Positions 1,318-17,501 of a DNA stretch of 46,049 nucleotides are shown in pieces. The stretch comes from Gammaproteobacteria bacterium (GTDB lineage: Bacteria; Pseudomonadota; Gammaproteobacteria; Acidiferrobacterales; SZUA-150), in NCBI GenBank assembly GCA_029880755.1, contig JAOUNW010000002.1:1-46049 (forward strand), read 5' to 3'. The position numbers and the translations under genes are program-made. Below the pieces are notes generated by a model. That model saw nothing but the letters and a program-made list of their open reading frames with translations. It searched no databases and was not told the DNA's origin. The stretch's first letter is position 1. Each line of letters begins with the position of its first letter.

Positions 1318-1411
1318 AATAGTAAGTCGCTCTTAACTGCTCAATAACGGGAAGTGTAACTCTAGCATGGCCGGTTTGTTAAATAGTTTATAATCCTTGT
1401 GGAATCCGCTG

Positions 1412-2125
1412 CTAATGCAGAAACAGTGAAATACCGCCCAGCAATATTAACCAGGCCACGACCCGCCGAAACAAGCGCTCATTCACCTTCAAATGCAAAT
1501 GGTTCGCCAGCCACAGGGTTGCCATAAGAAACGGCGCGGCCCATGCCATCATTAAAAGAATATCGTTGGTCAGGGTACCGTTCCAGACGTAACCTGAAAC
1601 CCGGAACAGGTTCATGGACAGAAAAAATGCCAGGGCATAATTGCGAATCTGGATTTTGCTATCGAATGTCGCCAGTAGCCTAGTCATGGCAATCGGGCCA
1701 CTGATACCAAACAATGCCTGCGACGTGCCAGCCAACGTATCAAGTAACCGCGCCAACCAAAAGGGCAACGCCAGTTTCCCCGGAAAAAACACCAGGTAAA
1801 ATCCAAACACCGTGATAGCAGCAGCCAGCCAGTATTGGAACGAAGAGACAGGCACCAGGTAAAAAAGATACAGGCCGAATACAGCGCCTACTGATGCAAA
1901 TATTACCATGGACAACAAAAAATCCAGTTTAACAGTTTTTTGGGATCGGGATAGCCCTATGGTGCCCACAAGAATTTGTGGCAGGGCTGAGAAAATCACC
2001 AATGTCTTGGTATCAATGATAAAGCTCATGACCATTATCATTAATATGGTGCCCGCCAGGCCGAAGATGATCTCCACCGTGTAAGTCACCATACAAACAA
2101 CTATCAACAGTGCCAACGACAGCAT
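1412..2125 (-). CDS. TauE/SafE (DUF81, TSUP) family membrane permease
   Basis: 237 aa and almost entirely hydrophobic, with about 7-8 predicted TM helices and Gly-rich helix motifs typical of sulfite/anion exporter TauE-like proteins. It sits 28 nt downstream of the 2OG oxygenase gene. Confidence 0.6.
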   Translation of the reverse strand: MLSLALLIVVCMVTYTVEIIFGLAGTILMIMVMSFIIDTKTLVIFSALPQILVGTIGLSRSQKTVKLDFLLSMVIFASVGAVFGLYLFYLVPVSSFQYWLAAAITVFGFYLVFFPGKLALPFWLARLLDTLAGTSQALFGISGPIAMTRLLATFDSKIQIRNYALAFFLSMNLFRVSGYVWNGTLTNDILLMMAWAAPFLMATLWLANHLHLKVNERLFRRVVAWLILLGGISLFLH

Positions 2126-2153
2126 GACTTAATTCAGAAGCAAGAACAGGTAA

Positions 2154-2741
2154 TCAGGCAAACACAACCCACGTTGTGGCAATATATTTCACCCCCGCCT
2201 GCAGTGTGGCGCCGCGATGCTCGTGAGTCCAAAAGGGAGGAAACAATACCAGCTTGCCTTCACGGGGTTTAACCTTGATTTCCTGAAATAGAAACTCGGT
2301 TTCACCACCAGGTCCGTCCACATCATTGAGATACCACACGGCCACTAATTGCCGTTGACTAAACTCATGACTGCCACCATCGATATGCCAATGATAAAAC
2401 TCTCCTGGCAGTGTTCGCTGGATTGCATAACCCATGTCCTTGAAGGGCCCCTTAAAGTAAGTGTATTTCTCCCGGAACTGATGCAGCACCGACCCCAGGG
2501 AGCGAAATAGTGCACGATCTATATCTTTCCAGTCGTCTTTACCGCTGACCACAAGATCAGTGGACCGTTTTACGTCAAGATCCTCTTCCCGGGTCTGGCC
2601 TATACGGCCCGGATACTGCTGCTCCTGTTTCGCCTCAAACCGCCGTATCATCTCCCGGCATACATCTCCCGGCAAAGCGCGATCCACTTCGAATATAAAG
2701 CTATTAGGTCTGATCTCGGTAATACTGTAGGTTTCTGGCAT
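2154..2741 (-). CDS. Fe(II)/2-oxoglutarate-dependent oxygenase (prolyl 4-hydroxylase-like)
   Basis: HxD...H facial triad candidates: YHWHIDGG and FWTHEHRG. Size is 195 aa. Confidence 0.65.
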   Translation of the reverse strand: MPETYSITEIRPNSFIFEVDRALPGDVCREMIRRFEAKQEQQYPGRIGQTREEDLDVKRSTDLVVSGKDDWKDIDRALFRSLGSVLHQFREKYTYFKGPFKDMGYAIQRTLPGEFYHWHIDGGSHEFSQRQLVAVWYLNDVDGPGGETEFLFQEIKVKPREGKLVLFPPFWTHEHRGATLQAGVKYIATTWVVFA

Positions 2742-2947
2742 TGTTTCTGACTTTTATCAACGATTCAGGGTTCGGACAATAAAATTAACTACTTATAATA
2801 ACACGCGTCCATTGGGGCCAGCAAAATCCCATGAGGGCAAAAAATAATGGCTGATTCACCCCTCACAGCTGACGGGTTTACATGGCTTGGCCAGACAACA
2901 CCAACCGTGCTAAATAGGATTGTAACGAAGCCAACACAGTCACAATT

Positions 2948-3994
2948 ATGCTGAATATCGGCGAGCTTATCGACACAGTGCAGACCAACTGCCATATTTC
3001 CGATGCCAAATATGCGGGCAACTATTCCATGTGCACTTTTTTGCTCAAGATGCGAGAGTATTACCGCTGGGAAAACGAATTTTCTTACTCCGCCACACTG
3101 GAAAAGGACGATATCGGCAACTGGCTGGTCAGCCGGGAACGTTCCTGGCAAGAAATAGAATCCGATGATTTTATGCCACTGCCACTGCAGGACACTTATA
3201 TCGATCCCTTCGATACCGATACCATTAATAATATCATTCTGGATCAGGGGTATGTATACAGCAGTGGTTATGGCATTTTTGGAAAACCCCATTTTTTTAT
3301 CGGCCACCTGCTGGAAAAACGGCGACGCGATGACATGACTATTCTTATTTCTTCATGTGAGTATGCGCGCGACCTTGTCGCCCCTCCGGCAATGACCCGT
3401 GATAAAACAATCTTTATTCGCCAGGAATCGGTCACCCGTTTTCTCTGGGAACGTATTGAGGAATGGAAGTGGAATAAGAAAAAGGATACTCCCATGGCAA
3501 GAGCCATCGCTTGTTATGGAAATGACGATAACATTAGCGAGTTGCTTTCACCTCTGACCGATGGTGAGATCGGTATTATGGTACTGCACGAATATGGGGA
3601 AGTTATGGTAGGCAAGCAACTGGGCCCGGATTGGGAAAAGATGCTATGGATGCTGTCAGGCACCAAGGCAGAGTTTATGGTTCGCGCCTTACGCGACAAT
3701 CTGGCGGATTGTCTATCTACCCTGCCTGAGCTTATCAGGATGAATATCGATGCCCCTCTGCATTTATTTTTTGCTAATTTTAGCGGTCTACGCAAACATC
3801 TATTCCCTGAAGCTGCAGAATGTTATCGCCAATGGCTACTGAAAGGCTCCATTAAGCCACTGGAATCGCTGATCTACGTCCACAAAGATATTATGCTGGA
3901 AAAGGCACAACAGATACTGCATCTGTTTCGATCAGGCAATCAGGAAACAGCAGCCGGCATTGAATCGCTTCTGGATCCCGGGCCTGCCAATTAA
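2948..3994 (+). CDS. Conserved-looking hypothetical protein (348 aa)
   Basis: Long ORF with normal composition, divergent from the 2154..2741 gene. No motif I can assign with confidence. Confidence 0.6.
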   Translation: MLNIGELIDTVQTNCHISDAKYAGNYSMCTFLLKMREYYRWENEFSYSATLEKDDIGNWLVSRERSWQEIESDDFMPLPLQDTYIDPFDTDTINNIILDQGYVYSSGYGIFGKPHFFIGHLLEKRRRDDMTILISSCEYARDLVAPPAMTRDKTIFIRQESVTRFLWERIEEWKWNKKKDTPMARAIACYGNDDNISELLSPLTDGEIGIMVLHEYGEVMVGKQLGPDWEKMLWMLSGTKAEFMVRALRDNLADCLSTLPELIRMNIDAPLHLFFANFSGLRKHLFPEAAECYRQWLLKGSIKPLESLIYVHKDIMLEKAQQILHLFRSGNQETAAGIESLLDPGPAN

Positions 3995-4087
3995 GCTGAT
4001 TATCCCGGCAATTACACTTCTATTTCCTGTCACAGGCTTCTGGTAAACTTACGTCTTTCCGCAATCCCATTTTATTAGATAATATTT

Positions 4088-4429
4088 ATGAACCTAGAAA
4101 TTATTATTGAGGACCGACGCAAAACCTTAAACGTTCCCGATGAAATTATGGCCGAAGCTGAGGCGTTTTTTGACAAAATGGATCGTGATATGGATCGCGG
4201 CTGGCAGATGGGACCGGAATTTATTGAGAAACCTGATCAGCTTGACCGTTGCAAAATTGCCGCAGACAAGATCCTGATTGCTATCGATACCAATAATGAG
4301 AATTTGTTGTTAATGATGGCGGGCTATATCCTGTCCCGAATGCCGGGTGTCACGGGTATTAATATCGATACCCAGGGAGAAATGCAAAACACGGAAATCA
4401 TTATGGGGCACGGTGGCCGAATCAATTAA
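4088..4429 (+). CDS. Hypothetical acidic protein (113 aa)
   Basis: ORF co-directional with its flanking genes. No recognisable motif. Confidence 0.45.
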   Translation: MNLEIIIEDRRKTLNVPDEIMAEAEAFFDKMDRDMDRGWQMGPEFIEKPDQLDRCKIAADKILIAIDTNNENLLLMMAGYILSRMPGVTGINIDTQGEMQNTEIIMGHGGRIN

Positions 4430-4453
4430 TTTTTCTGGGAAGGCTGTTACACT

Positions 4454-5128
4454 ATGTTACTCACTATCGCTGACATTTTAGATGAAAAAAAGCTGGCGAA
4501 TATCCGAAAGATTCTTGAAAGCGCCAAATTTGTCGACGGTAAATTGTCGGCAGGCAGTTTTGCCCGTCGTTTAAAAAATAATCAGGAAATGGAGCAGCAG
4601 TCCCAGCAGGCCCAATATCTGGATCAACTCGTGGTGGGCAGTCTGGCGGAAAATGCCATCTTTCGCAACGCCGCCCTCCCCCTGAAAGTATCTCAACCCT
4701 TCTTTGCAAGATATAATGACGGCATGTCTTATGGCGATCATATTGATGACCCTATAATGGGCACAGGTGGCGAACGCTACCGCACCGATGTTTCCGTAAC
4801 CGTATTTCTCAGTGAACCCAGCGAATATGATGGTGGCGAGCTGGTAATCAACACTACATTTGGCCAACAACAAATCAAACTGCCTGCGGGGCACGCAGTC
4901 ATGTATCCCTCATCCAGCCTGCATCATGTGGCTAAGGTTACACGAGGTAACCGACTGGTATCCGTATTATGGATTCAAAGCATGGTACGCGAACCCGCTA
5001 AGCGGGAGATTTTATTTGAACTAAATCAGGCCAGGGAGTCACTAATGAAAAGACATCCTGATAACCCAGAGACAGCGCAAGTTGACCACACCTATGTCAA
5101 CCTGGTGCGTTTATGGAGCGAGGTATAG
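4454..5128 (+). CDS. PKHD-type Fe(II)/2OG hydroxylase (YbiX/PiuC family)
   Basis: Collinear resemblance to E. coli YbiX as I recall it: [50 protein letters not shown]...ILFEL. Confidence 0.85.
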
Positions 5129-5535
5129 CGACATTGTCAAACGACAGCACTAAAACCAAGGAGCAGTGGTTACAACAACTAACACCGGAGCAATATCGCA
5201 TTACTCGCGAGCACGGCACTGAACCAGCCTTCAGCGGTAAATACCACAATTGCAAAACACCCGGTATCTATCAATGTATATGCTGCGGTGCCCGGTTATT
5301 TTCTTCGGAGACAAAATATGATTCCGGCAGCGGCTGGCCCAGTTTCTGGCAACCACTGGAAAAGATGAATATCCTGGAAAAAAAAGATGCCAGCCTGGGG
5401 ATGACGCGCACTGAAGTGCTTTGTGCTAAATGTCAGGCACATCTTGGGCATGTATTCGAAGATGGTCCCAATCCAACCGGATTACGATATTGTATTAACT
5501 CGGCTTCTCTCAAACTAGTGGAAAAGAAAAAGTAG
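5113..5535 (+). CDS. msrB: Peptide-methionine (R)-S-oxide reductase MsrB
   Basis: Two CxxC zinc motifs ([18 protein letters not shown]), GWPSF, and the catalytic RYCINS motif. There is a 16-nt overlap with the upstream hydroxylase gene. Confidence 0.9.
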
Positions 5536-5566
5536 GATCTAACAAAGAATACGGAGACCACGTGTT

Positions 5567-6250
5567 ATGAAGAAATTTGCTTTAATTTTGGTCGTCATAA
5601 GCACCACCCTGTTTGTTCACCACATCAGCTATAGCGATACCGCATTACCGGTGATCGAGCCAGAACGCATCATATTCATTAACAGCAAGGTTTTAGAGAT
5701 CAAACCAGATCAAATTGTCCACAAAGAGCCTCTCGACGCCTATCGCCTGCATGAACCAATTCGTTATCGGGAACAAGCGGTATTACTCGAGGACTGGCAA
5801 CGCGTCATCGTCAGCAAGCACATGAATTATTTTGAAGGACCGCGCGGAGAAGTCCGCGTTTATGATTATCAGGGAAACCTGCTGACCCCCGCCATCCAAT
5901 ATCGCGGACGAATTATGATTATCGGTCCTGCCAATCGAATTTTTTTAGGTCAACGATCACGCAGTTATCGCATCGATAGCAGTCTCCTGCTTAACAGTGA
6001 TGGAAAACTAGTGGCAACTATCCCGCAATCACAAGGTGCTTACGACTTTGCCCTGTCTCCGGATGGAAAGATGATTGTTATTTATGCCAGCGGCAAACAA
6101 AAAGACCAGAACATTACTAGTGCAAAATTGATTGATACTAATGGCAAGGAAATCAGAAGTCTGGAAGTCTCCCTGGGACAGACGCTAAATATAGAACACG
6201 AAGGACAGAAGTACGACTTTGTTGTGCCGCCTATTCCGCCTAACTATTAA
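5567..6250 (+). CDS. Secreted hypothetical protein (signal peptide; SPDGK beta-propeller-like repeat motif)
   Basis: The N-terminus MKKFALILVVISTTLFV is hydrophobic, and an SPDGKMIV motif is present. No family assigned. Confidence 0.55.
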   Translation: MKKFALILVVISTTLFVHHISYSDTALPVIEPERIIFINSKVLEIKPDQIVHKEPLDAYRLHEPIRYREQAVLLEDWQRVIVSKHMNYFEGPRGEVRVYDYQGNLLTPAIQYRGRIMIIGPANRIFLGQRSRSYRIDSSLLLNSDGKLVATIPQSQGAYDFALSPDGKMIVIYASGKQKDQNITSAKLIDTNGKEIRSLEVSLGQTLNIEHEGQKYDFVVPPIPPNY

Positions 6251-6431
6251 GCCAGAACATATTAAATGCTTTCTCATATCGACACGGCATTCTCTATTGC
6301 GCAGACAGGAATCGGGATGAAGGCTTCTTTAAGGTGGGTTATTTCGGGAAAATCTATCAATTGCGATTTGTTTAACGCTGCTTCCTTAAATAACAATAGA
6401 ATTCTTTTCACTCTATGTTCGCCACTTTAAA

Positions 6432-7355
6432 CTAAAGGGATTTTTCGGCTTCGGAAAACGTCAGCCCACAGACTTCAACAGGTTCGGTTTTACCTTTCAC
6501 GGTAATGGTCTTCTCCTTTTCCTGCCACAACGACTCAGGCAGGTGTTGATAGGCGTCTTTACCTATAATAATATCCTTACCCATTTCCTTGGAGTAGCTC
6601 TCCAGGCGAAATGTTAGATTGACAGCATCTCCTATAGCGGTATCACTTTTATCCACGCCAACGGCGGCGATACCGGCATTGATGCCCACCCCAATTTTTA
6701 ACTTTGTTCCCTGTAAAGTTGATTTATATTTTTCGTTTATATCATTAGAAATGCTATTCAACATGCACGCTGCTTTTAATGCAGCTGGCACCGCGCCTGT
6801 CATATTGCTTCCCGCCTCCCAGCGAGCATAGACACAGTCCCCCAAAAACTTGTCCACCGTACCCAAACATTTCTGAATACAATCGGTAACCGCATGAAAC
6901 CAGGCATTCATAATCTCGGTTAGAGATTCAATGGCAATGGTCTCGGACAAAGTGGTAAATCCGCGGATATCTGCTACCAGGATCACGAAATTAGACACCT
7001 CCACTTGCCGCTTTATCAGCACCGTCGCCGTCCCGGCCTCGTCGGCCTCCGGCTGCTTCAGCGCTTTTTCATGGATAAAAGCGAAATGACTTGAGCCCAG
7101 CGTAATTTTGTCTCCATTTTGGAGCAGGGTCGGTAGCGAGATGCGCTTGGCGTTGACATAACTGCCGTTTGAGCTGCCACCATCAATAAGGTAATAGTCG
7201 TCATCGCCCAGGCAGCGGACCATGGCATGATTGCGCGAAGCCTTCAAATCCACGAGGACAACATCGTTATTCTTATCGCGGCCAATAGTGAGTATGGTCC
7301 CGCAGGGAAATTCTTTTTTTTCTTCTTTCAGCGCTAACACTAGCGTGGCTGGCAT
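6432..7355 (-). CDS. FHA domain-containing class III adenylate/guanylate cyclase
   Basis: N-terminal FHA signature (GRDKNNDVVL...SRNHA...DGGSSNGSYVN). C-terminal cyclase motifs ILVADIRGFTTLSE, KFLGDCVYA and GINAGIAAVG. Confidence 0.8.
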   Translation of the reverse strand: MPATLVLALKEEKKEFPCGTILTIGRDKNNDVVLVDLKASRNHAMVRCLGDDDYYLIDGGSSNGSYVNAKRISLPTLLQNGDKITLGSSHFAFIHEKALKQPEADEAGTATVLIKRQVEVSNFVILVADIRGFTTLSETIAIESLTEIMNAWFHAVTDCIQKCLGTVDKFLGDCVYARWEAGSNMTGAVPAALKAACMLNSISNDINEKYKSTLQGTKLKIGVGINAGIAAVGVDKSDTAIGDAVNLTFRLESYSKEMGKDIIIGKDAYQHLPESLWQEKEKTITVKGKTEPVEVCGLTFSEAEKSL

Positions 7356-7650: not shown

Positions 7651-8052
7651 ATGAAAGAACGGCACTTTCGAATAATGGTGGGTGTAATACTAATTATTGG
7701 GCTTTACTACGACATGAATGATCTCATTCTTGCGATATTGATCATTATGGCCTTTGAAGCCATTACCAACTGGCGCATACCCATCATGATTTCTCGTCTA
7801 CGATACAGAAAATCTGATGCCCTGGTCTCGCCTGAAACCTCCCACGATGCGGATTCCATCTTCGGCCGATTTCAATTTGAAGCGGAACGTATGTTTCGTA
7901 TTCTTGTAATTCTTTTTGTCGCCACAGGCCAATACCTGTTCCCAGAGCAAATCTGGTTTATTCCCTGGTTCGTAGCATTTGCCTTATTGGGTGCAGGTCT
8001 CTCCGGCGCCTGTCCCATGGTCCTGGTATTACGCAAACTGGGATTCCGCTAA
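7651..8052 (+). CDS. DUF2892 (YgaP-like) small membrane protein
   Basis: Hydrophobic helices and a C-terminal GACPM motif. The ATG at 7651 is preceded by GGGGG (7638-7642). The listed ORF starts at the GTG at 7642. Confidence 0.55.
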   Translation: MKERHFRIMVGVILIIGLYYDMNDLILAILIIMAFEAITNWRIPIMISRLRYRKSDALVSPETSHDADSIFGRFQFEAERMFRILVILFVATGQYLFPEQIWFIPWFVAFALLGAGLSGACPMVLVLRKLGFR

Positions 8053-8068
8053 CCCGAGCTGTGCCGCC

Positions 8069-10555
8069 ATGATCCCGGAATACCCCAAAGTTTCTAGCGA
8101 CACCCAGATCAGTCTTCCTATCAAGATCACTATGATCGTGTTTTGGAGTCTGGTGATGACTGGCATGTTGGTCTACCTGCTATTGGTCCAACACAATGAA
8201 CTGGATATGGCGGAAAAACTGTCTCAGAAAACCGAGATCGCCGCGCACCGGATTCATTCGGTATTAGTTCACGACGAAAAACAATTCTCTAAAAAAGAAT
8301 TTCTCGAGCTACTGGAACAGGTCCGCAGTCAACTGGATTTTTCCGCTATTAAGATCAAGCCGCTAGATATTAATGCGCTTGAATTTGGCAACGACTCCAT
8401 ATTTCCCCTGAGCACAGGATCAGCAACACCTGACCTTGTCAGCCAGCGTCACATTCTGGATGTCCATTCTAAAAACGGGGACCACCAGTCGGTTGAGCTT
8501 ATTCTTTATTACCCGGATCCAAAGAAACTCATGGCACAAAAACGAAAGAATCTTTTTCTTGGGATAGGCACCTTTCTGCTTGCATTCGGTATCATCCTGG
8601 CCATGATTCTACAGCAAATTATTGCTAAACCTTTCTCCGCGATGGTTTATTCAGCAAAGGCCTTTTCAGACGGTGATCACGACTCCCGTTTTAATACGAA
8701 TCAATCCGCCGAGTTTGGTTATCTGGCTTCGTTTTTTAACCGAATCCTGGATAAGCTCTTATCCCAGAGAGATGAATTACAATCTGCCTTGAATAGGGTG
8801 AAAGCATCTGAAGCGGAGCTATTTCAGGAAAAGGAGCGTGTGGAGGTTACTCTCCATTCTATTGGTGACGCTGTCATTACAACCGACAGAAACGGTTCAA
8901 TTAATTATATGAATCCTGTCGCTGAAGCGCTTCTCAATATCAGTGATACCGAAGCCAAGGGAAAACCTATATCGGATATCTTGTCTCTGCTTGAAGAGAA
9001 TGAGGCCAGGTCACCTATTAGCAATCCGATCTCTGCTTGCCTTAACACCAATGAAGTCGTCGAAAAAACCGAAAACATTGTCGCTGTCACACCCGACGGA
9101 AACCGCATAGCGGTCAGCCTTACTGTTTCTCCAATAAGAAGTGCCTCTGGCAATGTTATTGGTACCGTCATGGTACTGCATAATATGGAACAAAACCGAG
9201 CACTATCTCGGCAACTCTCTTACCAGGCTAGCCACGATGAATTGACCGGTCTTTATAATCGCCGGGCATTTGAACAGTTCTTGCAATCGGCAATCGATTC
9301 GGCCATATCCGAAGGTCATCAACATGCGCTATGTTATCTGGATCTGGATCAGTTCAAAATTGTCAATGATACCTGTGGCCATATTGCTGGCGACGAACTC
9401 CTAAAACAGCTTGCCGGATTGCTCAAAGAGCAGTTTAGAGATAGCGATATATTAGCTCGCCTGGGCGGCGATGAGTTTGGCTTAATTCTGCACCATTGCG
9501 ACCCGGAAAAGGCCCTGCGTAAAACCGAAAAAATACACGAACTGATAGCCAGTTTCCGCTTCTATTGGGACTCGCATGTGTTTGAGGCCGGCGCCAGCAG
9601 CGGACTGGTATCTATTACGTCGGACACCCGCACCCTGGATCAAATACTGGGTTCAGCTGATATCGCCTGTTATGCAGCCAAGGAAAAAGGCCGTAATCGA
9701 ATCCATGTATATCAGCCTGACGATGATGAATTAAAACAACGCCGCGGCGAAATGCGATGGGTGTCCCGTATCAAGGAGGCCCTGGAACAGGATCGTCTCC
9801 AGCTCTACTATCAACCCATCGCTGAAGTAAACGACATCCATTCCAGATATATACATTTTGAAGTATTGGTTCGCATGCTGGACAAAGACAATAAACTCAT
9901 CCCGCCAATGAATTTTATACCTGCTGCTGAGCGCTTTAACTTAATGCCGGCAATTGACCGCTGGGTGATCAGTCACGTTTTTAGCTTCCTTAAACGCAAT
10001 ATTCATTCCAAATGCTCATATTTATGCTGTATTAATCTTTCAGGACAATCGTTAGGGGATGATAATTTTCAGCAATTTATTGTCGATGGTATTCGACAAA
10101 ATCACATTTCTCCTGAAAATATCTGTTTTGAGATTACCGAAACTGCTGCTATTACCAATCTGGCCAGGGCCAGAGTCTTTATGAAAACATTGCGCGCCAT
10201 GGGCTGCAAGTTTTCACTGGATGATTTTGGTAGCGGCCTAAGTTCCTTCTCCTATTTGAAGGAGCTGTCGGTTGATTTTCTAAAGATTGATGGCGTATTT
10301 ATTCGGGACATGGCCCAAAATCCCATCGACTACGCCATGGTAGAAGCAGTTAACCGTATCGGGCATGTGATGCGACTTCAAACTATTGCTGAATTCGTCG
10401 AGAACGATGAAATACTAAAGCAGCTACACCTATTGGGAATTAACTATGCCCAAGGATATGGTATCGCACGTCCCGCTCCTATAGAACAGTTATTGGACAT
10501 GATTAAAGCAAAAGGAATTCCTTTAACCGTCCCCTCCAGAAAAACAGATAATTAA
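8069..10555 (+). CDS. Membrane-bound HAMP-PAS-GGDEF-EAL c-di-GMP turnover protein
   Basis: Two TM segments flank a domain of about 150 aa, followed by PAS (SIGDAVITTD). The GGDEF motif is intact, with an RxxD I-site 5 residues upstream (RDSDILARLGGDEF). EAL-domain motifs are EVLVR, EITE, DDFGSG, KIDG and QGY. The start was moved to the ATG at 8069, just after the stop of the upstream gene. Confidence 0.85.
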   Translation: MIPEYPKVSSDTQISLPIKITMIVFWSLVMTGMLVYLLLVQHNELDMAEKLSQKTEIAAHRIHSVLVHDEKQFSKKEFLELLEQVRSQLDFSAIKIKPLDINALEFGNDSIFPLSTGSATPDLVSQRHILDVHSKNGDHQSVELILYYPDPKKLMAQKRKNLFLGIGTFLLAFGIILAMILQQIIAKPFSAMVYSAKAFSDGDHDSRFNTNQSAEFGYLASFFNRILDKLLSQRDELQSALNRVKASEAELFQEKERVEVTLHSIGDAVITTDRNGSINYMNPVAEALLNISDTEAKGKPISDILSLLEENEARSPISNPISACLNTNEVVEKTENIVAVTPDGNRIAVSLTVSPIRSASGNVIGTVMVLHNMEQNRALSRQLSYQASHDELTGLYNRRAFEQFLQSAIDSAISEGHQHALCYLDLDQFKIVNDTCGHIAGDELLKQLAGLLKEQFRDSDILARLGGDEFGLILHHCDPEKALRKTEKIHELIASFRFYWDSHVFEAGASSGLVSITSDTRTLDQILGSADIACYAAKEKGRNRIHVYQPDDDELKQRRGEMRWVSRIKEALEQDRLQLYYQPIAEVNDIHSRYIHFEVLVRMLDKDNKLIPPMNFIPAAERFNLMPAIDRWVISHVFSFLKRNIHSKCSYLCCINLSGQSLGDDNFQQFIVDGIRQNHISPENICFEITETAAITNLARARVFMKTLRAMGCKFSLDDFGSGLSSFSYLKELSVDFLKIDGVFIRDMAQNPIDYAMVEAVNRIGHVMRLQTIAEFVENDEILKQLHLLGINYAQGYGIARPAPIEQLLDMIKAKGIPLTVPSRKTDN

Positions 10556-10556
10556 C

Positions 10557-11405
10557 CTATTCCCCAGTGGCAACAGGCCTCGCACTGTTCGTTATCCATT
10601 CGCTCCAACTACCCGCATACAACTTGGCCCCTGTCAGACCGGCGTGCTCCATTGCCAGAATATTATGGCAGGCAGTTACGCCTGAACCACACATATGAAT
10701 CACTTTTTCTGGCGCAAGGCCGCCCAAACGAGCTATGTATTCCTGTCGTAGTTCGTCGGGTGACAGAAAATCCCCTCCCAAATTCAGATTGTCTTCGTAG
10801 GGCAGATTGACTGCGCCCGGCACATGTCCTGCCACCGTGTCCAATGGTTCCACTTCGCCGGAAAAGCGCTCTTCCGAGCGCGCATCAAACAGAACTGTAT
10901 TATTGTCATTCAGCGCCTGCTGCACAGTATGAGCGTCCACCCATAATTCATCATGCAGGCTGTAATCGAACTTCGCCGTAACAATGCTGGGTTTATCGGC
11001 AGTGACTGGCCTCTTCTCCCGAAGCCATTTCGGGTATACGCCGTCCAGAAGTGCGACGTTACCATGGCCCAGCCAACGTAGTAACCACCACATTCGACTA
11101 GCCATGGCGCCAAAGGCATCGTCGTAGACAACTACTTGAGTTTGATTTCCCACTCCCCATTGACCCAGTTTCTTTGATAATAATTCCGGATCAGGCAAGG
11201 GGTGTCGGCCTGAACCCTCAGTAATAGGTGATGACAAATCGTTATCAAGATGTACGTAACGTGCGCCCAAAATGTGCGCCTTGTCGTAAGCAGACTGACC
11301 GGCATCCGGATTAGTTAAGGTAAAGCGACAATCAAATACAACCCAATCCGGATCATCGAGATGCCGGGCAAGAGTATCCGTGCTGACTAGCGTGGTGTAG
11401 AGCAT
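10557..11405 (-). CDS. sseA: 3-mercaptopyruvate/thiosulfate sulfurtransferase (tandem rhodanese, SseA type)
   Basis: Two rhodanese modules. The active-site loop CGSGVTAC matches the CG(S/T)GVTA mercaptopyruvate-type signature. Confidence 0.8.
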   Translation of the reverse strand: MLYTTLVSTDTLARHLDDPDWVVFDCRFTLTNPDAGQSAYDKAHILGARYVHLDNDLSSPITEGSGRHPLPDPELLSKKLGQWGVGNQTQVVVYDDAFGAMASRMWWLLRWLGHGNVALLDGVYPKWLREKRPVTADKPSIVTAKFDYSLHDELWVDAHTVQQALNDNNTVLFDARSEERFSGEVEPLDTVAGHVPGAVNLPYEDNLNLGGDFLSPDELRQEYIARLGGLAPEKVIHMCGSGVTACHNILAMEHAGLTGAKLYAGSWSEWITNSARPVATGE

Positions 11406-11449
11406 AAAATAAAAACAGGATACAAGCCGCCATTAAGGCCTGTATCCTG
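11404..11449 (-). terminator. Rho-independent terminator of the upstream minus-strand operon
   Basis: The minus strand reads CAGGATACA-(16 nt)-TGTATCCTG followed by TTTTTATTTT. The U-tract runs directly into the sseA ATG. Confidence 0.75.
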
Positions 11450-11486
11450 TAGTGTTATGTAGAAGATAATTCTGAATGCCAGCGAG

Positions 11487-11825
11487 TTAATATCCACCTT
11501 TACGACGCGACTCCGGCAAACCGGCAATACGGCCACCCTGTTTGCTGGGATCCTTTGGGAACAAGTCATACACATCCTTCTGGCTAATCTTACCACCCCA
11601 TTTATCAGACATTGCTTTAACGATATTTCGCGTGTTTGGCTGATTGCCATTATTATTAATGAATTCATCCCTGAGAAACTCAATCAGGTCCCAGTGCTTT
11701 TGGGTAAGATCGAGACCCTCTTCCTTGGCCAGATGTTCACCCAGCTCCTTGGTCCAGTCGCCGTGATCCACCAAATAACCGTTTGCAGTAGTTTCGATAG
11801 TTTTTCCATTAAATTCAATTGCCAT
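11487..11825 (-). CDS. DsrC/TusE-family protein lacking both conserved C-terminal cysteines (RspA-like)
   Basis: Collinear with the bona fide DsrC at 18684..19019 (GKTI..GYL...W......A..EG..LT..HW..I.FLR......P..R......AGLP). It ends AGLPESRRKGGY instead of AGLPKPTGCV. The internal QACKYAGLP is QGGRIAGLP here. SD GAGGGGG lies upstream. Confidence 0.8.
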   Translation of the reverse strand: MAIEFNGKTIETTANGYLVDHGDWTKELGEHLAKEEGLDLTQKHWDLIEFLRDEFINNNGNQPNTRNIVKAMSDKWGGKISQKDVYDLFPKDPSKQGGRIAGLPESRRKGGY

Positions 11826-11875
11826 TGGTATTCCCCCTCTAAGTAACTGAAAGATGGCAGGTTAAACAAAAAAAT

Positions 11876-12556
11876 TTACATAGTTTGTTCAGGCGACACT
11901 TCAGCGATATCCTTGTGCGGCACAAACAACCCGCAACCCAGATGCCGGAAGGGACCTAACCCTACCTGCTGAAGCTTCACTGAGTCTTTCACATCAAGTT
12001 CGGCCACCATTAAACTGCGCGTCGTCAGACTGCGCTCAGGTGTCCGAATAATTCTTTTCTTACCCGGTAACATTTTGTGCGGGCGTATTCCAATTTGCGC
12101 CAATTGCGCCACAACATTATCCATAAACACCGTTTCATCATCCTCGCTAACGACGTAACGGGAAAATACCGTAGTAATGTTGCTGAGTGCTCGCCGGTTC
12201 ACCTTGAGCACTTCCATGGCATTGCCTGCAACATCCAGAGTCTTGCCTACCAATGTATTTGCGTCAGCCTCCCGCTCTTTTGGCAGTCTCAAAATCAGGC
12301 GGGTACGCCGGGAAAGGTGGAGTATATCGTCTGGATTCTCCGGGCGCATCCATCCGTTGCCCATTTCGGAAATATGCAAGGGATGAACCCCGGCACCGGT
12401 TTCCTGTGCAAGCCATGGCAACTCCCTGAGTAAAGCGGCAGACAATGCCCAGGCATGATCCACTGGCAACGAGCGACACTGGATATTAAAGACAAGGTCG
12501 ATAATATCCTCGGGAATATTCTGATCCTGATTAGATTTGGTTTCGTTCCAGTACAT
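11876..12556 (-). CDS. Cas6/Cmx6-like RAMP-fold protein (orphan; no CRISPR array or cas neighbours)
   Basis: C-terminal glycine-rich loop GLGPFRHLGCG (nt 11930-11962) fits the Cas6 pattern G-h-G-x5-G-h-G. The N-terminal LPVDHAWALSAALLRELPWL...GVHPL resembles the type I-MYXAN Cas6 family from memory. Its ATG abuts the TGA of the upstream gene. Confidence 0.6.
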   Translation of the reverse strand: MYWNETKSNQDQNIPEDIIDLVFNIQCRSLPVDHAWALSAALLRELPWLAQETGAGVHPLHISEMGNGWMRPENPDDILHLSRRTRLILRLPKEREADANTLVGKTLDVAGNAMEVLKVNRRALSNITTVFSRYVVSEDDETVFMDNVVAQLAQIGIRPHKMLPGKKRIIRTPERSLTTRSLMVAELDVKDSVKLQQVGLGPFRHLGCGLFVPHKDIAEVSPEQTM

Positions 12557-13264
12557 TCAGTTTACCGGGAGTTTCTCACTCAACATGTCGCGGTCAAACC
12601 ACCAGTCGTTTTGCACCATGACATCGACAATATTGCGCAGTCTGGGCAGGAACAGGGACGGGTCATGTAGTTCCATTTTCCGGAACCAGACATCAAAGGC
12701 TTCCTGGGTCTCAATTTTGCTATGGCGCCGGGCTACAGTACCCATAAGGTTTCCGGTAAAAAATAACAGGTCGTCGCGTTTCTTCCCGTCGCAGCGCATA
12801 TCTACCACGTAGTGGGCCGCCGCCATGGCCACGGCGGCGCCATCGGAATCATCGGGCGTTTCATCCACAATGTGCTGCAATAAAGCCACCGTCACTTCCG
12901 GATCGATGGGATAGGTCACGCCCAGCCAAATCCCCTGACCCAGGGCCGCCAGGGATTCCGCCTGATCGGCCTTAAACATAACATCGCAGGCAATCGCGGC
13001 ATGCTCGAAATCTTCGGCCGTCATCATAACGTCGAATACCTGGCGAGCCAGATCAAAGGCCTCACTGCCCCGCTCCAGATCCACCAGTGTACCGGCTATC
13101 AATAATTCCAACTCGGCTCGTTCTCTTGGCTCATGCCCAGGAGCCAGGGCCTCAATCTGGCGCTGGGTAGCATCAATCTGCTGCTCCAGTCGGATAGTGG
13201 AAGACAGTGCATCTTCAGCACCGTCGGCATCCAGCATGCCTGTATCATCATTTATGTATTTCAT
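12557..13264 (-). CDS. Hypothetical acidic, probably all-helical protein (about 235 aa)
   Basis: Long ORF. Its stop TGA (12557-12559) abuts the start of the next gene. I prefer the ATG at 13264; the listed ORF starts at the TTG at 13270. Confidence 0.6.
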   Translation of the reverse strand: MKYINDDTGMLDADGAEDALSSTIRLEQQIDATQRQIEALAPGHEPRERAELELLIAGTLVDLERGSEAFDLARQVFDVMMTAEDFEHAAIACDVMFKADQAESLAALGQGIWLGVTYPIDPEVTVALLQHIVDETPDDSDGAAVAMAAAHYVVDMRCDGKKRDDLLFFTGNLMGTVARRHSKIETQEAFDVWFRKMELHDPSLFLPRLRNIVDVMVQNDWWFDRDMLSEKLPVN

Positions 13265-13289
13265 TACCAATCTCTAAAATATTTCTCAT

Positions 13290-13487
13290 TTAACGAGTTA
13301 CCGAATTGACACCCACAAAGGCGCCTTCCAGCTGATCTTCCCAATTAGGCGGCGTATCCGGAAAAGACGGCTTAACGTCCATCTTGAAAAACATTTCCGA
13401 ACCGGCTTTTTCCCTTACAATGTTCAAAAGCCCATCAAATGTTTCCAGCTCATGATGCTGAATCAGTATTTCGCTAAGATATAACAT
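13290..13487 (-). CDS. Small hypothetical protein (65 aa)
   Basis: This is the internal-Met portion (MLYLSEILIQHH...) of the listed ORF 13290..13673. GAGG-containing sequence lies upstream. It fills the gap between the TauD-like gene and the next gene without overlap. Confidence 0.4.
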   Translation of the reverse strand: MLYLSEILIQHHELETFDGLLNIVREKAGSEMFFKMDVKPSFPDTPPNWEDQLEGAFVGVNSVTR

Positions 13488-13506
13488 GTCCTGCCTCTTC
13501 CATTCA

Positions 13507-14460
13507 TCAATAAACGGGTTCAGTGCCCTGGATGCGATCATAATACCGGGCGCGGAATAGCAATCGCTGGCTACCGGTATCCGGATCGTCGGTAAATGCC
13601 GTCCGGCTATGTAACACATTATTGCAAAGCAGTCCTTGCCCGCTCGACAAACGATGCCGAAAAATATAACCAAAAGTACCCGCCAGTACTGTTTCCAGAA
13701 ATCTCACAGCTTCCTGAGTCAGCTCATCCTGTTTCCACTCAATACTGCGCGTTCTGGCTGTATAACGCATATGCAATGCACCGCTTTGCGGGTCGATGGA
13801 AAACACCGGGCCGGTTTGAGCGGGACGCAGTTGCTCCGGCCCCGTTTCCGTATTCTCCGGAATAGTCATAATATCCTGCGCCATCAATGCCCGAATAAAA
13901 TCCGGGTTATGCTCCCTAATTAATAAGTATGCAATTTCGTGGTCCATAAGTCCGTTTTCGCCGCCCGTCGCCGCTGGCGTTGCACAGTGTAGCAACATCG
14001 CCCGAATCTGCCGCTCAGGAGGATTGTAATAACCGTCGGTATGCCACAGTATTCGCTTATCGGTATAAGGGATGTAGCCGCGCAGGGATTTACCCGGCAC
14101 TACCGTTAGCGAGGTAATCCCGTCATCATCCGCCAGTAAGTTGGGATCCAGACGCTGCAGACCAAACGCCTGCCCGACGGCTCTTGCCGCGTCCTTGTCT
14201 TCCCTCGCCGACATGCACTCATATATGACAAAATTACACTTGCGCACCCGGCTCAACATGGCGCCATGCTCGTTTCTACTAAGTGCGTAGGGGTTATCGA
14301 GCTCTACCAGTAATTCCTCCAAACGGGAGGGATAATTCTGCAACTTGCCATCGCGCCAACGCTTGTAGCCGTCTTCATTTTTCAATGAAAAAGGACTCTG
14401 CTGGCTCCTTGCTGAACTCGTGGGGTCTGTTACAGCCATTTTCTGTCTCAAATTACCCAT
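13507..14460 (-). CDS. TauD/TfdA-family Fe(II)/2-oxoglutarate dioxygenase
   Basis: WHTDG (HxD) plus a distal NNVLHSRTAF His and an RLLFRARY Arg. Size is 317 aa. It is the first gene of the minus-strand operon. Confidence 0.7.
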   Translation of the reverse strand: MGNLRQKMAVTDPTSSARSQQSPFSLKNEDGYKRWRDGKLQNYPSRLEELLVELDNPYALSRNEHGAMLSRVRKCNFVIYECMSAREDKDAARAVGQAFGLQRLDPNLLADDDGITSLTVVPGKSLRGYIPYTDKRILWHTDGYYNPPERQIRAMLLHCATPAATGGENGLMDHEIAYLLIREHNPDFIRALMAQDIMTIPENTETGPEQLRPAQTGPVFSIDPQSGALHMRYTARTRSIEWKQDELTQEAVRFLETVLAGTFGYIFRHRLSSGQGLLCNNVLHSRTAFTDDPDTGSQRLLFRARYYDRIQGTEPVY

Positions 14461-14647
14461 CAGGCGTTACTGAAAACGACTTAAAATATGGGGGACAAAA
14501 TCGACAAGACAAGCGTAAAATCCCACCCACAGTTGATATCTTGAGCCCGGAATGTAGAAGAATCCGCCGCTAAAAAAAAGCCTGGCTTTTGGGGGAATAC
14601 AGTATTAACCGAGCAGACATCTGGAAATACGTGTGAGACACTCGTAT

Positions 14648-14670
14648 AGAAATAACATTAGAATAACATT
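14648..14670. promoter_or_regulatory. Tandem direct repeat (AGAAATAACATT / AGAATAACATT) in the divergent control region
   Basis: Two adjacent copies of about 11 bp sit inside the AT-rich core of the 545-bp intergenic region between the TauD-like gene and dsrA. Its function is unknown. Confidence 0.3.
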
Positions 14671-15005
14671 GTAACTTATTAATCTATATAGTTTATCATT
14701 CCAATGATCTTATCTGGATCTAATAATCAACTGTCTCTCATATATCTCTTTTGGGGAGGGTAAAGGCTGACTTTATCACCCCCAAAGAAAGATTCTATCG
14801 AAGGGCTGGCAAGACTAGACTTCTGCCAGTTTTTTGCAGCTGAGTGGATGAGTCAGAAATTCCTGGCAAGGTGATGAAAAGATACCCATTGCCTTCACAG
14901 GGAGAAATCTGAATAATATGCGCCCCTTGGCTGCCAAGAGGAGTCGCCCCGCAAAACGCAGGGTGATCTTAAAAAAAGATCCGATTCGCCTGGAGGTAAA
15001 AAACA

Positions 15006-16319
15006 ATGGCTAGCAGCAAACCCAAGAATCCGGAAAAGCACAGCACTTATCTGCCCAAAGAAAAGAAGTCTAGCAAACCGTTCCACAAGACTCCCATGCT
15101 TGATCAGCTGGAGACCGGTCCATGGCCGAGCTTCGTTACTGGTCTCAAGCGTTTGGCGATGAACAATAATATGATGGTCGACCTGCTTGGCCAGCTTGAA
15201 CATTCCTACAACACGCGTCTCGGTTACTGGAAAGGTGGCACAGTGTCAGTTTTCGGTTATGGCGGCGGCATTATTCCGCGCTTCACCGAGCTCATGAATG
15301 CCGATGGCAAGCCAATGTTCCCGGAAGCAAAAGAATTTCATACCTTGCGCGTACAGCCGGCACCTGGTAACCACTACACCACCGCTATGCTGCGCCAGCT
15401 ATCCAATTCCTGGAATAAGTACGGTTCCGGCTTAATCGCTTTCCATGGCCAAACCGGTAATATTATGTTTATCGGCACCACATCTGAGAACACCCAGCAC
15501 TTCTTCGACGAAATCAACGAATACGGTTGGGATCTTGGTGGCGCAGGCCCCTGCGTCAGAACCGGTATGTCCTGCATCGGTGCCGCACGTTGCGAACAAA
15601 GCTGTGCCAATGAACAGAAAATTCACCGCTTACTGGTAAATAATTTTATGGACGACATGCACCGTCCTGCCCTGCCCTACAAGTTTAAATTCAAGGTATC
15701 AGGTTGCCCCAACGACTGCATGAACTCAATTCACCGTTCTGACTTTGCTGTCATCGGTACCTGGCGTGATGACATGAAAGTTGACCAAAAAGAGGTCAAG
15801 GCATTCGTTGAGAAAAAGGGCCGCAAATACGTGATCGATAACGTAATTGCCCGTTGCCCAACCAACGCCCTGTCCTTGAGTGATGACAATACCCTGAATG
15901 TGGATAACCGTAATTGTGTTCGCTGCATGCATTGTATCAATGTCATGACCAAAGCTCTGTCAGTGGGCGACGACCAAGGTGTAACCATTCTTATCGGCGG
16001 AAAACGTACCCTGAAAATTGGTGATACCATGGGCACAGTGATCATTCCTTTCATGAAACTGGAAACAGAAGAAGACTATGAAGGCCTGAAGGAACTCGCT
16101 GAAAATACTATCGACTTCTTTGCAGAAAATGCCCTGGAACACGAACGCACCGGTGAAATGATTGAGCGTATCGGTCTGGTCAACTTCCTGGAAGGCATTG
16201 GTGTCGACGTTGACCCGAACATGGTTAATCACCCGCGCGCAACATCCTACGTTCGTATGGACGACTGGGATATTGAAGCTCAGAAATGGAACGAGCGTAA
16301 AGCAAAAAAGGCTGGTTAA
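15006..16319 (+). CDS. dsrA: Dissimilatory (reverse-type) sulfite reductase alpha subunit
   Basis: TPMLDQLETGPWPSFV N-terminal signature, siroheme/FeS cysteine motifs and a ferredoxin-like insert (CPNDC, CVRCMHC). GGAGG SD at 14992-14996. Context is dsrB-dsrR. Confidence 0.95.
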   Translation: MASSKPKNPEKHSTYLPKEKKSSKPFHKTPMLDQLETGPWPSFVTGLKRLAMNNNMMVDLLGQLEHSYNTRLGYWKGGTVSVFGYGGGIIPRFTELMNADGKPMFPEAKEFHTLRVQPAPGNHYTTAMLRQLSNSWNKYGSGLIAFHGQTGNIMFIGTTSENTQHFFDEINEYGWDLGGAGPCVRTGMSCIGAARCEQSCANEQKIHRLLVNNFMDDMHRPALPYKFKFKVSGCPNDCMNSIHRSDFAVIGTWRDDMKVDQKEVKAFVEKKGRKYVIDNVIARCPTNALSLSDDNTLNVDNRNCVRCMHCINVMTKALSVGDDQGVTILIGGKRTLKIGDTMGTVIIPFMKLETEEDYEGLKELAENTIDFFAENALEHERTGEMIERIGLVNFLEGIGVDVDPNMVNHPRATSYVRMDDWDIEAQKWNERKAKKAG

Positions 16320-16336
16320 TAAAAAAGGCATAACAA

Positions 16337-16368
16337 CAGGCCCGCCCCAACATCATTGAGCGGGCCTG
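16337..16368 (+). promoter_or_regulatory. GC-rich intercistronic hairpin between dsrA and dsrB
   Basis: CAGGCCCGC (16337-16345) pairs with GCGGGCCTG (16360-16368): a 9-bp stem and 14-nt loop, followed by TGTTTAAGAATTT. Confidence 0.6.
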
Positions 16369-16418
16369 TGTTTAAGAATTTAACCAAATACTCAAGTATT
16401 TTACTGGGGGTTTAAAAA

Positions 16419-17501
16419 ATGGCTGACCAAAAGGCGACTCCGCGCCATCCCATTGAAACAGGCTGTCCTGACGCGTTTCAGTACATGCATCCTATTTTTC
16501 TGAAAAACTATGGTAACTGGGCTTATCATGACCGCCCGCGTCCGGGTGTGTTACATCACGTTGCCAAAAGTGGTGATCAGGTCTGGACCGTGCGTGTCGG
16601 TACACAGCGTCAATTAGGGCCCTATGAAATCAATCTGCTGTGCGACATTATCGACCAGTACGCTGATGGTTACGTGCGCTTCACTATTCGCTCCAATATG
16701 GAAGTCATGGTGACAGATGAAGCCAAGGTTCAGCCTCTGATCCAGGCCTTCGAAGACGCCGGTTACCCTGTTGGCGGTACCGGTCCTTCCGTGACTATGA
16801 TCTCTCACACTCAGGGTTGGTTGCACTGCGACATTCCTGGCACGGACGCATCCGGTGTGGTCAAGGCGTTAATGGATGAGTTGCATGACGAGTTCATTAA
16901 TGAGCAAATGCCTAACCGCGTACATATCACCACTTCCTGCTGTCAGATCAACTGCGGCGGCCAGGGTGATATCGCCATTAACGTTCAACATACCAAGCCA
17001 CCCAAGATCAATCACGATCTGGTAGCTAACGCCTGCGAACGTCCGTCCGTCGTGGCACGTTGCCCGGTAGCAGCCATTCGCCCGGCCATGGTCAACGGCA
17101 AGCCCTCTTTGGAAGTTGATGAGAAGAAATGTATCTGTTGCGGCGCCTGCTTCCCACCCTGCCCACCCATGCAGATCAACGATGCAGATTTCACCAAGCT
17201 CGCGATCTGGGTTGGCGGAAAGCACTCCAATGCACGCAGCAAGCCTATGTTCCATAAACTGGTTGCCGCAGGCATTCCTAACAATCCGCCACGCTGGCCC
17301 GAAGCCGCAGCGATTGTTAAGAACATTCTGCGCGTTTACAAAAAAGACGCCCAGGACTGGGAGCGCGTGGGTGACTGGGTTGAACGCATCGGTTGGCCTC
17401 GTTTCTTCGAGTTAACCGAACTGCCGTTTACCAAGTTCCACATCGATAACTGGACCGGTTCACGTTATACGCTGAACGCTTCAACACATATCCGCTTCTA
17501 A
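16419..17501 (+). CDS. dsrB: Dissimilatory (reverse-type) sulfite reductase beta subunit
   Basis: 360 aa with DsrB-type Cys clusters (TSCCQINCGG, CPVAAI, CICCGACFPPCP). It is adjacent to dsrA. Confidence 0.95.
   Translation: MADQKATPRHPIETGCPDAFQYMHPIFLKNYGNWAYHDRPRPGVLHHVAKSGDQVWTVRVGTQRQLGPYEINLLCDIIDQYADGYVRFTIRSNMEVMVTDEAKVQPLIQAFEDAGYPVGGTGPSVTMISHTQGWLHCDIPGTDASGVVKALMDELHDEFINEQMPNRVHITTSCCQINCGGQGDIAINVQHTKPPKINHDLVANACERPSVVARCPVAAIRPAMVNGKPSLEVDEKKCICCGACFPPCPPMQINDADFTKLAIWVGGKHSNARSKPMFHKLVAAGIPNNPPRWPEAAAIVKNILRVYKKDAQDWERVGDWVERIGWPRFFELTELPFTKFHIDNWTGSRYTLNASTHIRF

Follow-up and report, generated by a model that had tools for sequence, protein, structure and literature searches.

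A Cas6-family protein in a conserved operon divergent from dsrA in sulfur-oxidising bacteria

The DNA analysed here, referred to as the window, is a stretch of 46,049 nucleotides (nt) from a contig of a Gammaproteobacteria bacterium, and all coordinates are positions within it. In the table of open reading frames (ORFs) and in the sequence, five tightly packed, co-directional minus-strand genes run from 14460 down to 11487, divergent from dsrA, and the fourth of them encodes a protein of the Cas6 family. The block and its surroundings comprise the following features.

13507-14460, minus strand: gene 1, dsrQ, the first gene of the block; 317 amino acids (aa), TauD/TfdA-family Fe(II)/2-oxoglutarate dioxygenase
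13290-13487, minus strand: gene 2, s65; 65 aa, real start at the ATG at 13487, with GAGG ahead of it
12557-13264, minus strand: gene 3, H235; 235 aa, ATG at 13264, predicted all-helical and TPR-like
11876-12556, minus strand: gene 4, Cas6-family (PF09559) protein; 226 aa, from a dsr-linked, CRISPR-independent clade
11487-11825, minus strand: gene 5, C*; 112 aa, DsrC/TusE fold, without cysteine
11405-11450, minus strand: intrinsic-terminator-like hairpin and T-run, between C* and the rhodanese gene
10557-11405, minus strand: two-domain rhodanese, 3-mercaptopyruvate-sulfurtransferase-like, a frequent sixth gene of the block
14461-15005, between the two directions: shared divergent control region, the 545-bp spacer separating dsrQ and dsrA
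15006-16319, plus strand: dsrA (TIGR02064, 576 bits)
16419-17501, plus strand: dsrB (TIGR02066, 508 bits)

The gene junctions are as a preliminary description of this DNA had given them: 19 nt between genes 1 and 2, 25 nt between genes 2 and 3, a TGA of gene 3 that directly abuts the ATG of gene 4 (0 nt; 12557/12556), and a 50-nt gap with GAGGGGG inside it ahead of gene 5. At the place given for the strong terminator there is a terminator-like hairpin running from 11450 to 11415 with a 14-pair stem (7 GC pairs), followed by the T-run TTTTTATTTT down to 11405. dsrA and dsrB are confirmed by their profiles. The 545 bp described as a control region common to the block and to dsr keep that assignment. 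Downstream of dsrAB follow genes for DsrM, K, O and P, a DsrL-type NAD(P)-binding flavoprotein in the DsrL position and a DsrN-type amidase.

The likeness of the 226-aa product to Cas6/Cmx6, proposed earlier from the letters of the sequence, proved strong by both profile and structure comparison. The protein matches PF09559 over profile positions 1-190 of 191 (E = 9.5e-58), scores 121.8 bits against TIGR02807 (cas6_cmx6, 'type I-MYXAN'; cut-off 98.85) and matches the PADLOC Cas6 models with an E-value of 1.6e-57. Its 32-sequence profile finds the Cas6 subunit of a type I-B CRISPR-associated transposon (CAST) Cascade (PDB 8fcj_B) at 3e-21, and hhalign against a CAST Cas6 gives a probability of 99%. 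The AlphaFold2 (AF2) model (predicted local distance difference test score, pLDDT, 86) shows a double ferredoxin-like fold, as in the repeat-associated mysterious proteins (RAMPs), with a C-terminal glycine-rich loop. Its top Foldseek match is again 8fcj_B (E = 4e-15; template modelling (TM) scores 0.74/0.77), followed by Pyrococcus (Pfu) Cas6 and Thermus and E. coli Cse3, so that all the best matches are Cas6 or Cse3. By sequence profile and predicted fold, the 226-aa protein is thus a member of the Cas6 family.

The motif GLGPFRHLGCG lies where it had been placed, at residues 199-209 (nt 11930-11962) and 17 residues short of the C-terminus. Across an alignment of 32 sequences with 52-69% identity to the window protein, the loop G199-L-G-x3-x-L-G-C-G209 does not vary; the 43 invariant columns of this alignment indicate purifying selection rather than decay, and nine basic residues are invariant or at least 90% conserved within this closely related set. 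Invariant in both clades of PF09559 (see below) are D33, H58, R90, R133, Q196 and the loop G199-x-G201-x2-R204-x3-C208-G209-x-F211-x-P213; H58, R90, R133 and R204 are thereby common to CRISPR-linked and dsr-linked members. These family-wide positions, including the GxGxxRxxxCGxFxP loop, are near-invariant in 147 diverse representatives, and the window protein keeps them all. RAMP proteins bind RNA through the glycine-rich loop and conserved basic residues, and the strict retention of these is our main argument that RNA is presumably still the ligand.

Two scans of contigs, each with one genome per species, recovered at least 575 and at least 589 confirmed relatives. We examined 157 non-redundant loci, of which 104, from different species, had enough flanking DNA to be evaluable. 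A divergent dsrA lies within 4 kb in 95 of these 104, usually with the same partner genes, so that synteny, on which the preliminary description had made its proposal depend, is high. The same arrangement in about 100 independent genomes places the block far beyond chance. Among the examined loci the commonest layout is dsrA<>dsrQ-s65-H235-Cas6-C* (45 loci), followed by the same layout minus H235 (23 loci); dsrQ-Cas6-C* stands alone in some Gammaproteobacteria (L095-L104), and Beggiatoa-like genomes have the s65-Cas6 pair alone, away from dsr. The Cas6-like gene is the common denominator of the block, the partners around it vary, and dsrA stands next to it almost without exception; the first of these statements holds partly by construction, because the searches used a Cas6-like query. 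Carriers number well over a hundred bacterial species and belong to Acidiferrobacterales, Chromatiales, Thiotrichales, Arenicellales, Ca. Thiodiazotropha and sulfur-oxidising Betaproteobacteria, with Sulfuricaulis limicola, Cocleimonas flava and Allochromatium palmeri among the cultured ones. These results identify the block as an accessory operon conserved with the oxidative (sulfur-oxidising) Dsr system.

Proteobacterial-type dsr genes together with the block also occur on contigs labelled Candidatus Methylomirabilis (L007/L034), Bacteroidota (L012), Nitrospiraceae (L063) and Haliangium (L099). These off-phylum assignments of metagenome-assembled genomes (MAGs) probably reflect mis-binning, horizontal transfer being the alternative.

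The absence of CRISPR repeats and cas genes from the 46 kb, noted before, is borne out. Neither Tandem Repeats Finder nor a k-mer array scan detected a CRISPR array in the window, and Pfam and PADLOC searches of its other large ORFs returned no cas gene. The array scan was equally negative for the fetched dsr-linked loci, and no cas genes stood beside the block in the three dsr-linked loci whose neighbours were annotated with Pfam. S. limicola carries the block (L006), and its complete genome is reported to contain 0 CRISPR loci (PMC5024460); in the same paper its C* gene appears as SCL_1279, an additional copy of 'dsrC' located five genes away from dsrA (SCL_1274). The Cas6-like protein of the dsr block is therefore CRISPR-independent. 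Two related ideas were discarded: a defence island, as PADLOC matched neither partners nor neighbours, and H235 as a Cas8 or Cas11 remnant of a 'mini-Cascade', for which hhalign gave a probability of 0.2%.

Within PF09559, a neighbour-joining tree separates the dsr-linked proteins from the CRISPR-linked branch as sampled here; mean identity is 24% between the two groups and 41% within the dsr-linked one. The solved CAST Cas6 as query returned 109 protein clusters, nearly all cyanobacterial, and the window protein returned 3146; among 50%-identity representatives it had 1453 matches. The CRISPR-linked members sit in cas6-cas8(DevT)-cas7-cas5 operons beside TniQ and a short array. A GNGWxR insertion, absent from the CRISPR-linked proteins, is present in 144 of 147 full-length sequences drawn from the best 150, and C27, H34, W48, G68-W69-x-R71, S82, R84, K161, R180 and H214 are invariants specific to the dsr-linked clade. 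The dsr-linked proteins form a clade of their own, far larger than the sampled CRISPR-linked branch, and their specific invariants probably mark a new or additional interface. No s65-Cas6 fusion was found among the longer representatives, which are start-site artefacts or carry linker insertions.

Members of the dsr-linked clade are nevertheless annotated by NCBI as 'type I-MYXAN CRISPR-associated protein Cas6/Cmx6' (P0005, P0013, P0028, P0058, P0077, P0082 and others) and by JGI as 'CRISPR-associated protein Cas6'. The CRISPR label of this clade is not justified by context. With thousands of proteins that lack a CRISPR context called Cas6/Cmx6, cas6 counts in sulfur-oxidiser genomes and metagenomes are inflated.

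The first partner is the TauD/TfdA-type dioxygenase that had been recognised in the preliminary description (PF02668, E = 3e-22, 80 bits). Its H140-x-D142...H284 triad and R299, the 2-oxoglutarate-binding arginine, are at least 95% conserved in 128 orthologues, and it scores far below the cut-offs of the carnitine- and phosphonate-pathway equivalogs. In the window and in most loci it lies divergent and directly upstream of dsrA, the position of the TauD-like gene that Lenk et al. 2012, as cited in PMC7596348 and PMC9371685, named dsrQ; PMC7596348 cites them as attributing the gene to aerobic or facultatively aerobic chemotrophic sulfur oxidisers. dsrQ is gone from the block in A. palmeri, several Chromatiaceae MAGs and Ca. 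Thiodiazotropha, where s65, H235 and Cas6 stay; other Chromatiaceae MAGs retain it. Its loss in A. palmeri, the one cultured phototroph sampled, fits an oxygen-requiring enzyme that is dispensable in an anaerobe.

The two partners that could not be placed before still match no family in Pfam, NCBIfam or PADLOC. The 65-aa protein s65, the commonest immediate partner of the Cas6-like gene, is conserved as MLYLSE...DVKPxYPDTPxNWED..EGAF in 74 sequences. The AF2 model of H235 (pLDDT 90) has 11 helices arranged as a TPR-like solenoid; its best PDB matches are TPR domains, not significant (E >= 0.056), and its homologues form 4305 clusters, all unnamed.

The fifth product has the DsrC/TusE fold (PF04358, E = 3e-31; TIGR03342, 95.9 bits, cut-off 53.5), with A. 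vinosum DsrC (1yx3) as best PDB match (E = 4e-18). That both redox cysteines are replaced stands, and the protein contains no cysteine at all. In the alignment with 1yx3, to the end of the aligned part, its tail reads KQGGRIAGLPESRRKGGY opposite KQACRFAGLPK... of DsrC, so that the first redox cysteine is replaced; the second, which DsrC carries in its C-terminal GC motif (PMC8477390), is missing from the RRKGGY tail. Across 76 sequences the C-terminal end, GLPESRRKGGY, hardly varies. By the definition in PMC8477390, DsrC has two C-terminal cysteines and AGLPKPTG-x-C, and the tail of C* is instead AGLPESRRKGGY. Lacking any cysteine and AGLPKPTG-x-C, C* is of RspA type rather than DsrC or TusE.

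The five-gene unit of the preliminary description was confirmed gene by gene, with the amendment that it is often six: in many of the closest relatives, not in more distant lineages, the downstream rhodanese joins it, and among the first 88 loci it is co-directional past C* in 43. The rhodanese has PF00581 in two stretches (E = 1e-28) and a CGSGVTA loop visible in the sequence; against NF008557, the SseA equivalog, it reaches 142 bits, under the cut-off of 250. In the window the terminator-like hairpin (11405-11450, minus strand) abuts the rhodanese start codon, with no Shine-Dalgarno sequence seen there. In other genomes the rhodanese gene lies co-directionally 80-100 nt past C*.

Seventy dsrA-dsrQ spacers were compared for conserved elements, and core matches were counted in 1.1 Mb of loci. 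The window holds the following elements.

14816-14821, plus strand: TAGACT, a conserved -10-like box for dsrA
14771-14786, no strand given: box L, 'TTGGGGxGATA'
14740-14760, no strand given: box R, partly palindromic, TATCCC-N4-GGGATA
14889-14917, no strand given: second dsrA promoter candidate, from a promoter scan

Three boxes recur at fixed spacing and orientation in about 50 of the 70 spacers (region compared in L006-L090). Read toward dsrQ, these are an AGTCTA box, about 25 nt further on 'TTGGGGxGATA', and about 31 nt beyond that '(TAT)CCC-N4-G(G/A)GATAT'. On the dsrA strand AGTCTA reads TAGACT, with the variants TACACT, TAGAAT and TAAACT, as expected for a -10 hexamer. Of 74 exact matches to the box R core, 64 lie inside a dsrA-dsrQ spacer, all in the same orientation. 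Box R is a perfect palindrome in some genomes; its right arm often has a G-to-A change, which no compensating change ever accompanies. As a hairpin for Cas6 (CCC-N4-GGGATAT) it was rejected as the main reading because of this uncompensated change and because it sits upstream of the likely promoters. We take its 7-2-7 geometry to resemble NarL/LuxR-type sites.

Downstream of the dsr genes the window encodes a HAMP-GAF-HisKA_3 kinase (28024-29646, plus strand) and a LuxR-type response regulator (29627-30295, plus strand). In A. palmeri a response regulator and a PAS kinase follow directly past the Cas6-like gene (L160 8736-11961, minus strand). The two-component system is a candidate regulator acting on the conserved boxes.

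We propose, with confidence somewhat short of even, that the Cas6-like protein binds or cuts structured RNA and thereby controls dsr expression after transcription. Like its CRISPR relatives, it would still bind, and perhaps cut, a specific structured RNA. It would work in a complex with s65 and H235, which is probable given that the genes are translationally coupled: stop and start codons that abut, or nearly so, suggest joint synthesis of s65, H235 and Cas6, and the abutting H235/Cas6 codons and the persistence of the s65-Cas6 pair alone in Beggiatoa-like genomes support such a complex. Its RNA activity could consist in processing or stabilising segments of the long dsr mRNA, or in acting on a structured dsrA leader. 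In what is the most speculative part of the proposal, DsrQ, the DsrC mimic and the rhodanese might supply signals of oxygen and sulfur status or have the Dsr proteins themselves as targets.

Work on A. vinosum gives this proposal a possible setting. DsrR and DsrS mutants described by Grimm et al. in 2010-2011 reportedly point to post-transcriptional control of dsr, the effector not being named. Regulation in that organism is also reported to include DNA binding by DsrC. As PMC3397948 cites Grimm 2010, dsrEFH and dsrC transcripts there are far above dsrA despite a single operon. Unequal transcript levels combined with a post-transcriptional layer make an RNA-level role attractive and would be a task suited to an RNA-processing protein encoded near dsrA. 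No RNA-binding effector is named in the A. vinosum work, however; the link to a Cas6-like protein is one that we infer, and the carrier seen here is A. palmeri.

Two observations on dsrA leaders offer leads. Many leaders (L006-L048 region) end in a UCCUUC...AGGAGG pairing that, judged by eye, is a possible Shine-Dalgarno-sequestering hairpin. The candidate leader of the window (14822-15005, plus strand, from the TAGACT box to the ATG) folds better than shuffled sequences (z = -4.15), which we regard as a lead only.

Several results weigh against an RNA-level role. A repeat and inverted-repeat scan for a repeated hairpin in the dsr region of the window (10-32 kb) gave chance-level pairs only, and Rfam at gathering threshold gave 0 matches. 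The GC-rich hairpins of the dsrA-dsrB spacers vary with lineage and are missing from some lineages, the Cas6-C* spacers lack structure, and RNAalifold, run on the conserved 3' part of 16 dsrA leaders, gave a stem of only 4 pairs, without covariation. Box R, given its uncompensated change, appears to act as a DNA site or operator rather than as an RNA stem. None of the partner proteins is a known RNA-handling protein, and the role of H58 as catalytic residue is assumed from its conservation. For the earlier suggestion of an RNA-directed module recruited to sulfur metabolism, the retained family-wide Cas6 invariants speak in its favour and no target RNA was identified; it is plausible, unproven.

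As to the spacer hairpins themselves, the dsrA-dsrB spacer of the window (16324-16381, plus strand) contains a 10-bp GC-rich hairpin (ACAGGCCCGC...GCGGGCCTGT). Similar, non-homologous hairpins occur between dsrA and dsrB in many relatives and are absent in Sulfuricaulis-type loci.

A bolder version of the RNA proposal, which we think doubtful, is that this Cas6 clade was recruited as a stand-alone ribonuclease or RNA chaperone that acts with s65 to shape the polycistronic dsr message or its leader. On this view it would be the effector that accounts for the unequal dsr transcripts and for the post-transcriptional control in purple sulfur bacteria, and the first Cas protein to serve energy metabolism in a dedicated housekeeping role.

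The main competing explanation, itself rather unlikely in our estimate, dispenses with RNA: the Cas6 fold would have been repurposed as a protein- or small-ligand-binding subunit which, with s65, H235, the DsrC mimic, DsrQ and the rhodanese, forms a complex for DsrAB/DsrC assembly, maturation or sulfur trafficking. The negative searches for an RNA target fit this explanation, as does the origin of all the partners in protein or sulfur chemistry (TPR-like scaffold, DsrC fold, rhodanese, dioxygenase), and the GNGW-x-R insertion with C27, H34, W48 and H214, absent from CRISPR-linked Cas6, could form a new binding site. The strict retention of the glycine-rich loop and of the family-wide His and Arg residues would, however, be hard to explain if RNA binding had been lost, and we know of no RAMP protein that works without RNA, which counts against it too.

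Much less probable is a tRNA or rRNA modification module, in which the Cas6-like protein brings the RNA, the rhodanese and the TusE-like protein handle sulfur and the dioxygenase hydroxylates. The operon does join a TusE/DsrC fold and a rhodanese to an RNA-binding fold, but the rhodanese and dsrQ are dispensable in many lineages whereas the linkage to dsrA is nearly universal, and a housekeeping RNA modification would be limited neither to Dsr-type sulfur oxidisers nor to a position divergent to dsrA. Without a cysteine, C* cannot relay persulfide sulfur, which speaks against such a module and weakens the analogy to TusE and tRNA thiolation drawn in the preliminary description.

Less probable again is that the Cas6-like protein is a DNA-binding transcription factor acting on box R. 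A regulator divergent to its target is a classical layout, box R is conserved in position and orientation in about 50 loci, and its stem and loop sizes equal those of the GCC-N4-GGC hairpin in CRISPR repeats of related Cas6 proteins. Yet box R fits a 7-2-7 site of a NarL/LuxR-type response regulator, built from NarL heptamers, at least as well, and the window encodes a regulator of this type together with its kinase, as does the DNA next to the block in A. palmeri. In Beggiatoa-like genomes, moreover, the s65-Cas6 pair lies away from any dsr promoter, and to our knowledge Cas6 is not known to bind double-stranded DNA, which also counts against this role.

That the gene is a displaced or orphan cas6 working for a CRISPR-Cas system located at another site in the genome, or what is left of a decaying one, is effectively refuted: the above-cut-off score to TIGR02807, an equivalog that names 'type I-MYXAN Cas6/Cmx6', is set against S. 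limicola with the block and 0 CRISPR arrays in a complete genome, a dsrA-adjacent position in 95/104 loci from two proteobacterial classes, purifying selection (43 invariant columns, 32 sequences), and a clade apart from the sampled CRISPR-linked one, whose members sit in cas6-cas8-cas7-cas5 operons with arrays.

What is already known of the locus is the Cas6 family, the dsrQ name and the RspA class of DsrC-like proteins. The Cas6 of type I-B CAST or 'I-MYXAN' systems (8fcj chain B; about 220 aa) has the same family, fold, glycine-rich loop and H58, R90, R133 and Q196. The window protein is only about 24% identical to it, falls in a separate clade and has the GNGWxR insertion with C27, H34, W48 and H214; dsr-linked members stand beside dsrAB, whereas CRISPR-linked ones stand beside cas8/cas7/cas5, TniQ and an array. 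In Tn7-like CAST elements and type IV systems, Cas components are likewise reused outside adaptive immunity. Those systems keep a CRISPR RNA (crRNA)-guided effector and an array; the dsr block, by contrast, has a lone Cas6-family protein with no source of guide RNA, at a core energy-metabolism locus.

The preliminary description knew of no function described for such a combination, which has to be qualified for the first gene: it is the dsrQ of Lenk et al. 2012 (via PMC7596348 and PMC9371685), of the TauD family and divergent from dsrA. In the passages of the two citing papers on it, dsrQ figures as a gene on its own, for which a role in sulfite release from sulfonates is speculated, and the following four or five genes go unmentioned there. 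The rest of the block, unlike the described dsrQ, is present without it in A. palmeri and some other Chromatiaceae. C* shares with the RspA-type DsrC/TusE proteins (PMC8477390) the DsrC fold and the lack of redox cysteines and of AGLPKPTG-x-C, but differs as a distinct orthologous group with a near-invariant tail, DPSKQGGRIAGLPESRRKGGY, and a constant position immediately behind the Cas6-like gene; for the RspA family, named in PMC8477390, a function is hypothesised only. A literature search, in which Lenk 2012 was covered through the papers citing it, returned no description of the Cas6 clade in dsr loci, of the operon beyond dsrQ or of a function for s65 or H235.

Together, these comparisons suggest that a CRISPR protein was recruited into energy metabolism for an undescribed job; if true, the block would offer a clear example of a Cas protein that has exchanged immunity for a cellular task. 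The Dsr pathway gains four or five conserved, unstudied genes in environmentally dominant sulfur oxidisers, including invertebrate symbionts (Ca. Thiodiazotropha). For the post-transcriptional regulation of dsr, so far unexplained, the Cas6-like protein is a concrete candidate. Where A. palmeri and some other Chromatiaceae lack only dsrQ, an oxygen-dependent module separates from a core formed by s65, H235 and Cas6.

Within the first approximately 25 nt past the stop codon of the Cas6-like gene, several Acidiferrobacterales-type and related loci (L022, L027, L032, L037, L054, L060) share a conserved CTTTGTAT(T/C)AT motif. It resembles an extended -10 element, so that the DsrC-like gene may have a promoter of its own there.

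The wider neighbourhood of the block in the window (709-7355 and 7979-10555) is partly conserved in the three relatives compared, S. limicola (L006), a MAG (L007) and the closest contig (L089). It encodes a TauE sulfite exporter, two 2OG-Fe(II) oxygenases (one of PKHD type), a DUF6866 protein, an FHA-nucleotide cyclase and a PAS-GGDEF-EAL protein. With these two additional 2OG-Fe(II) oxygenases near the block, three oxygen-dependent oxygenases cluster around dsr.

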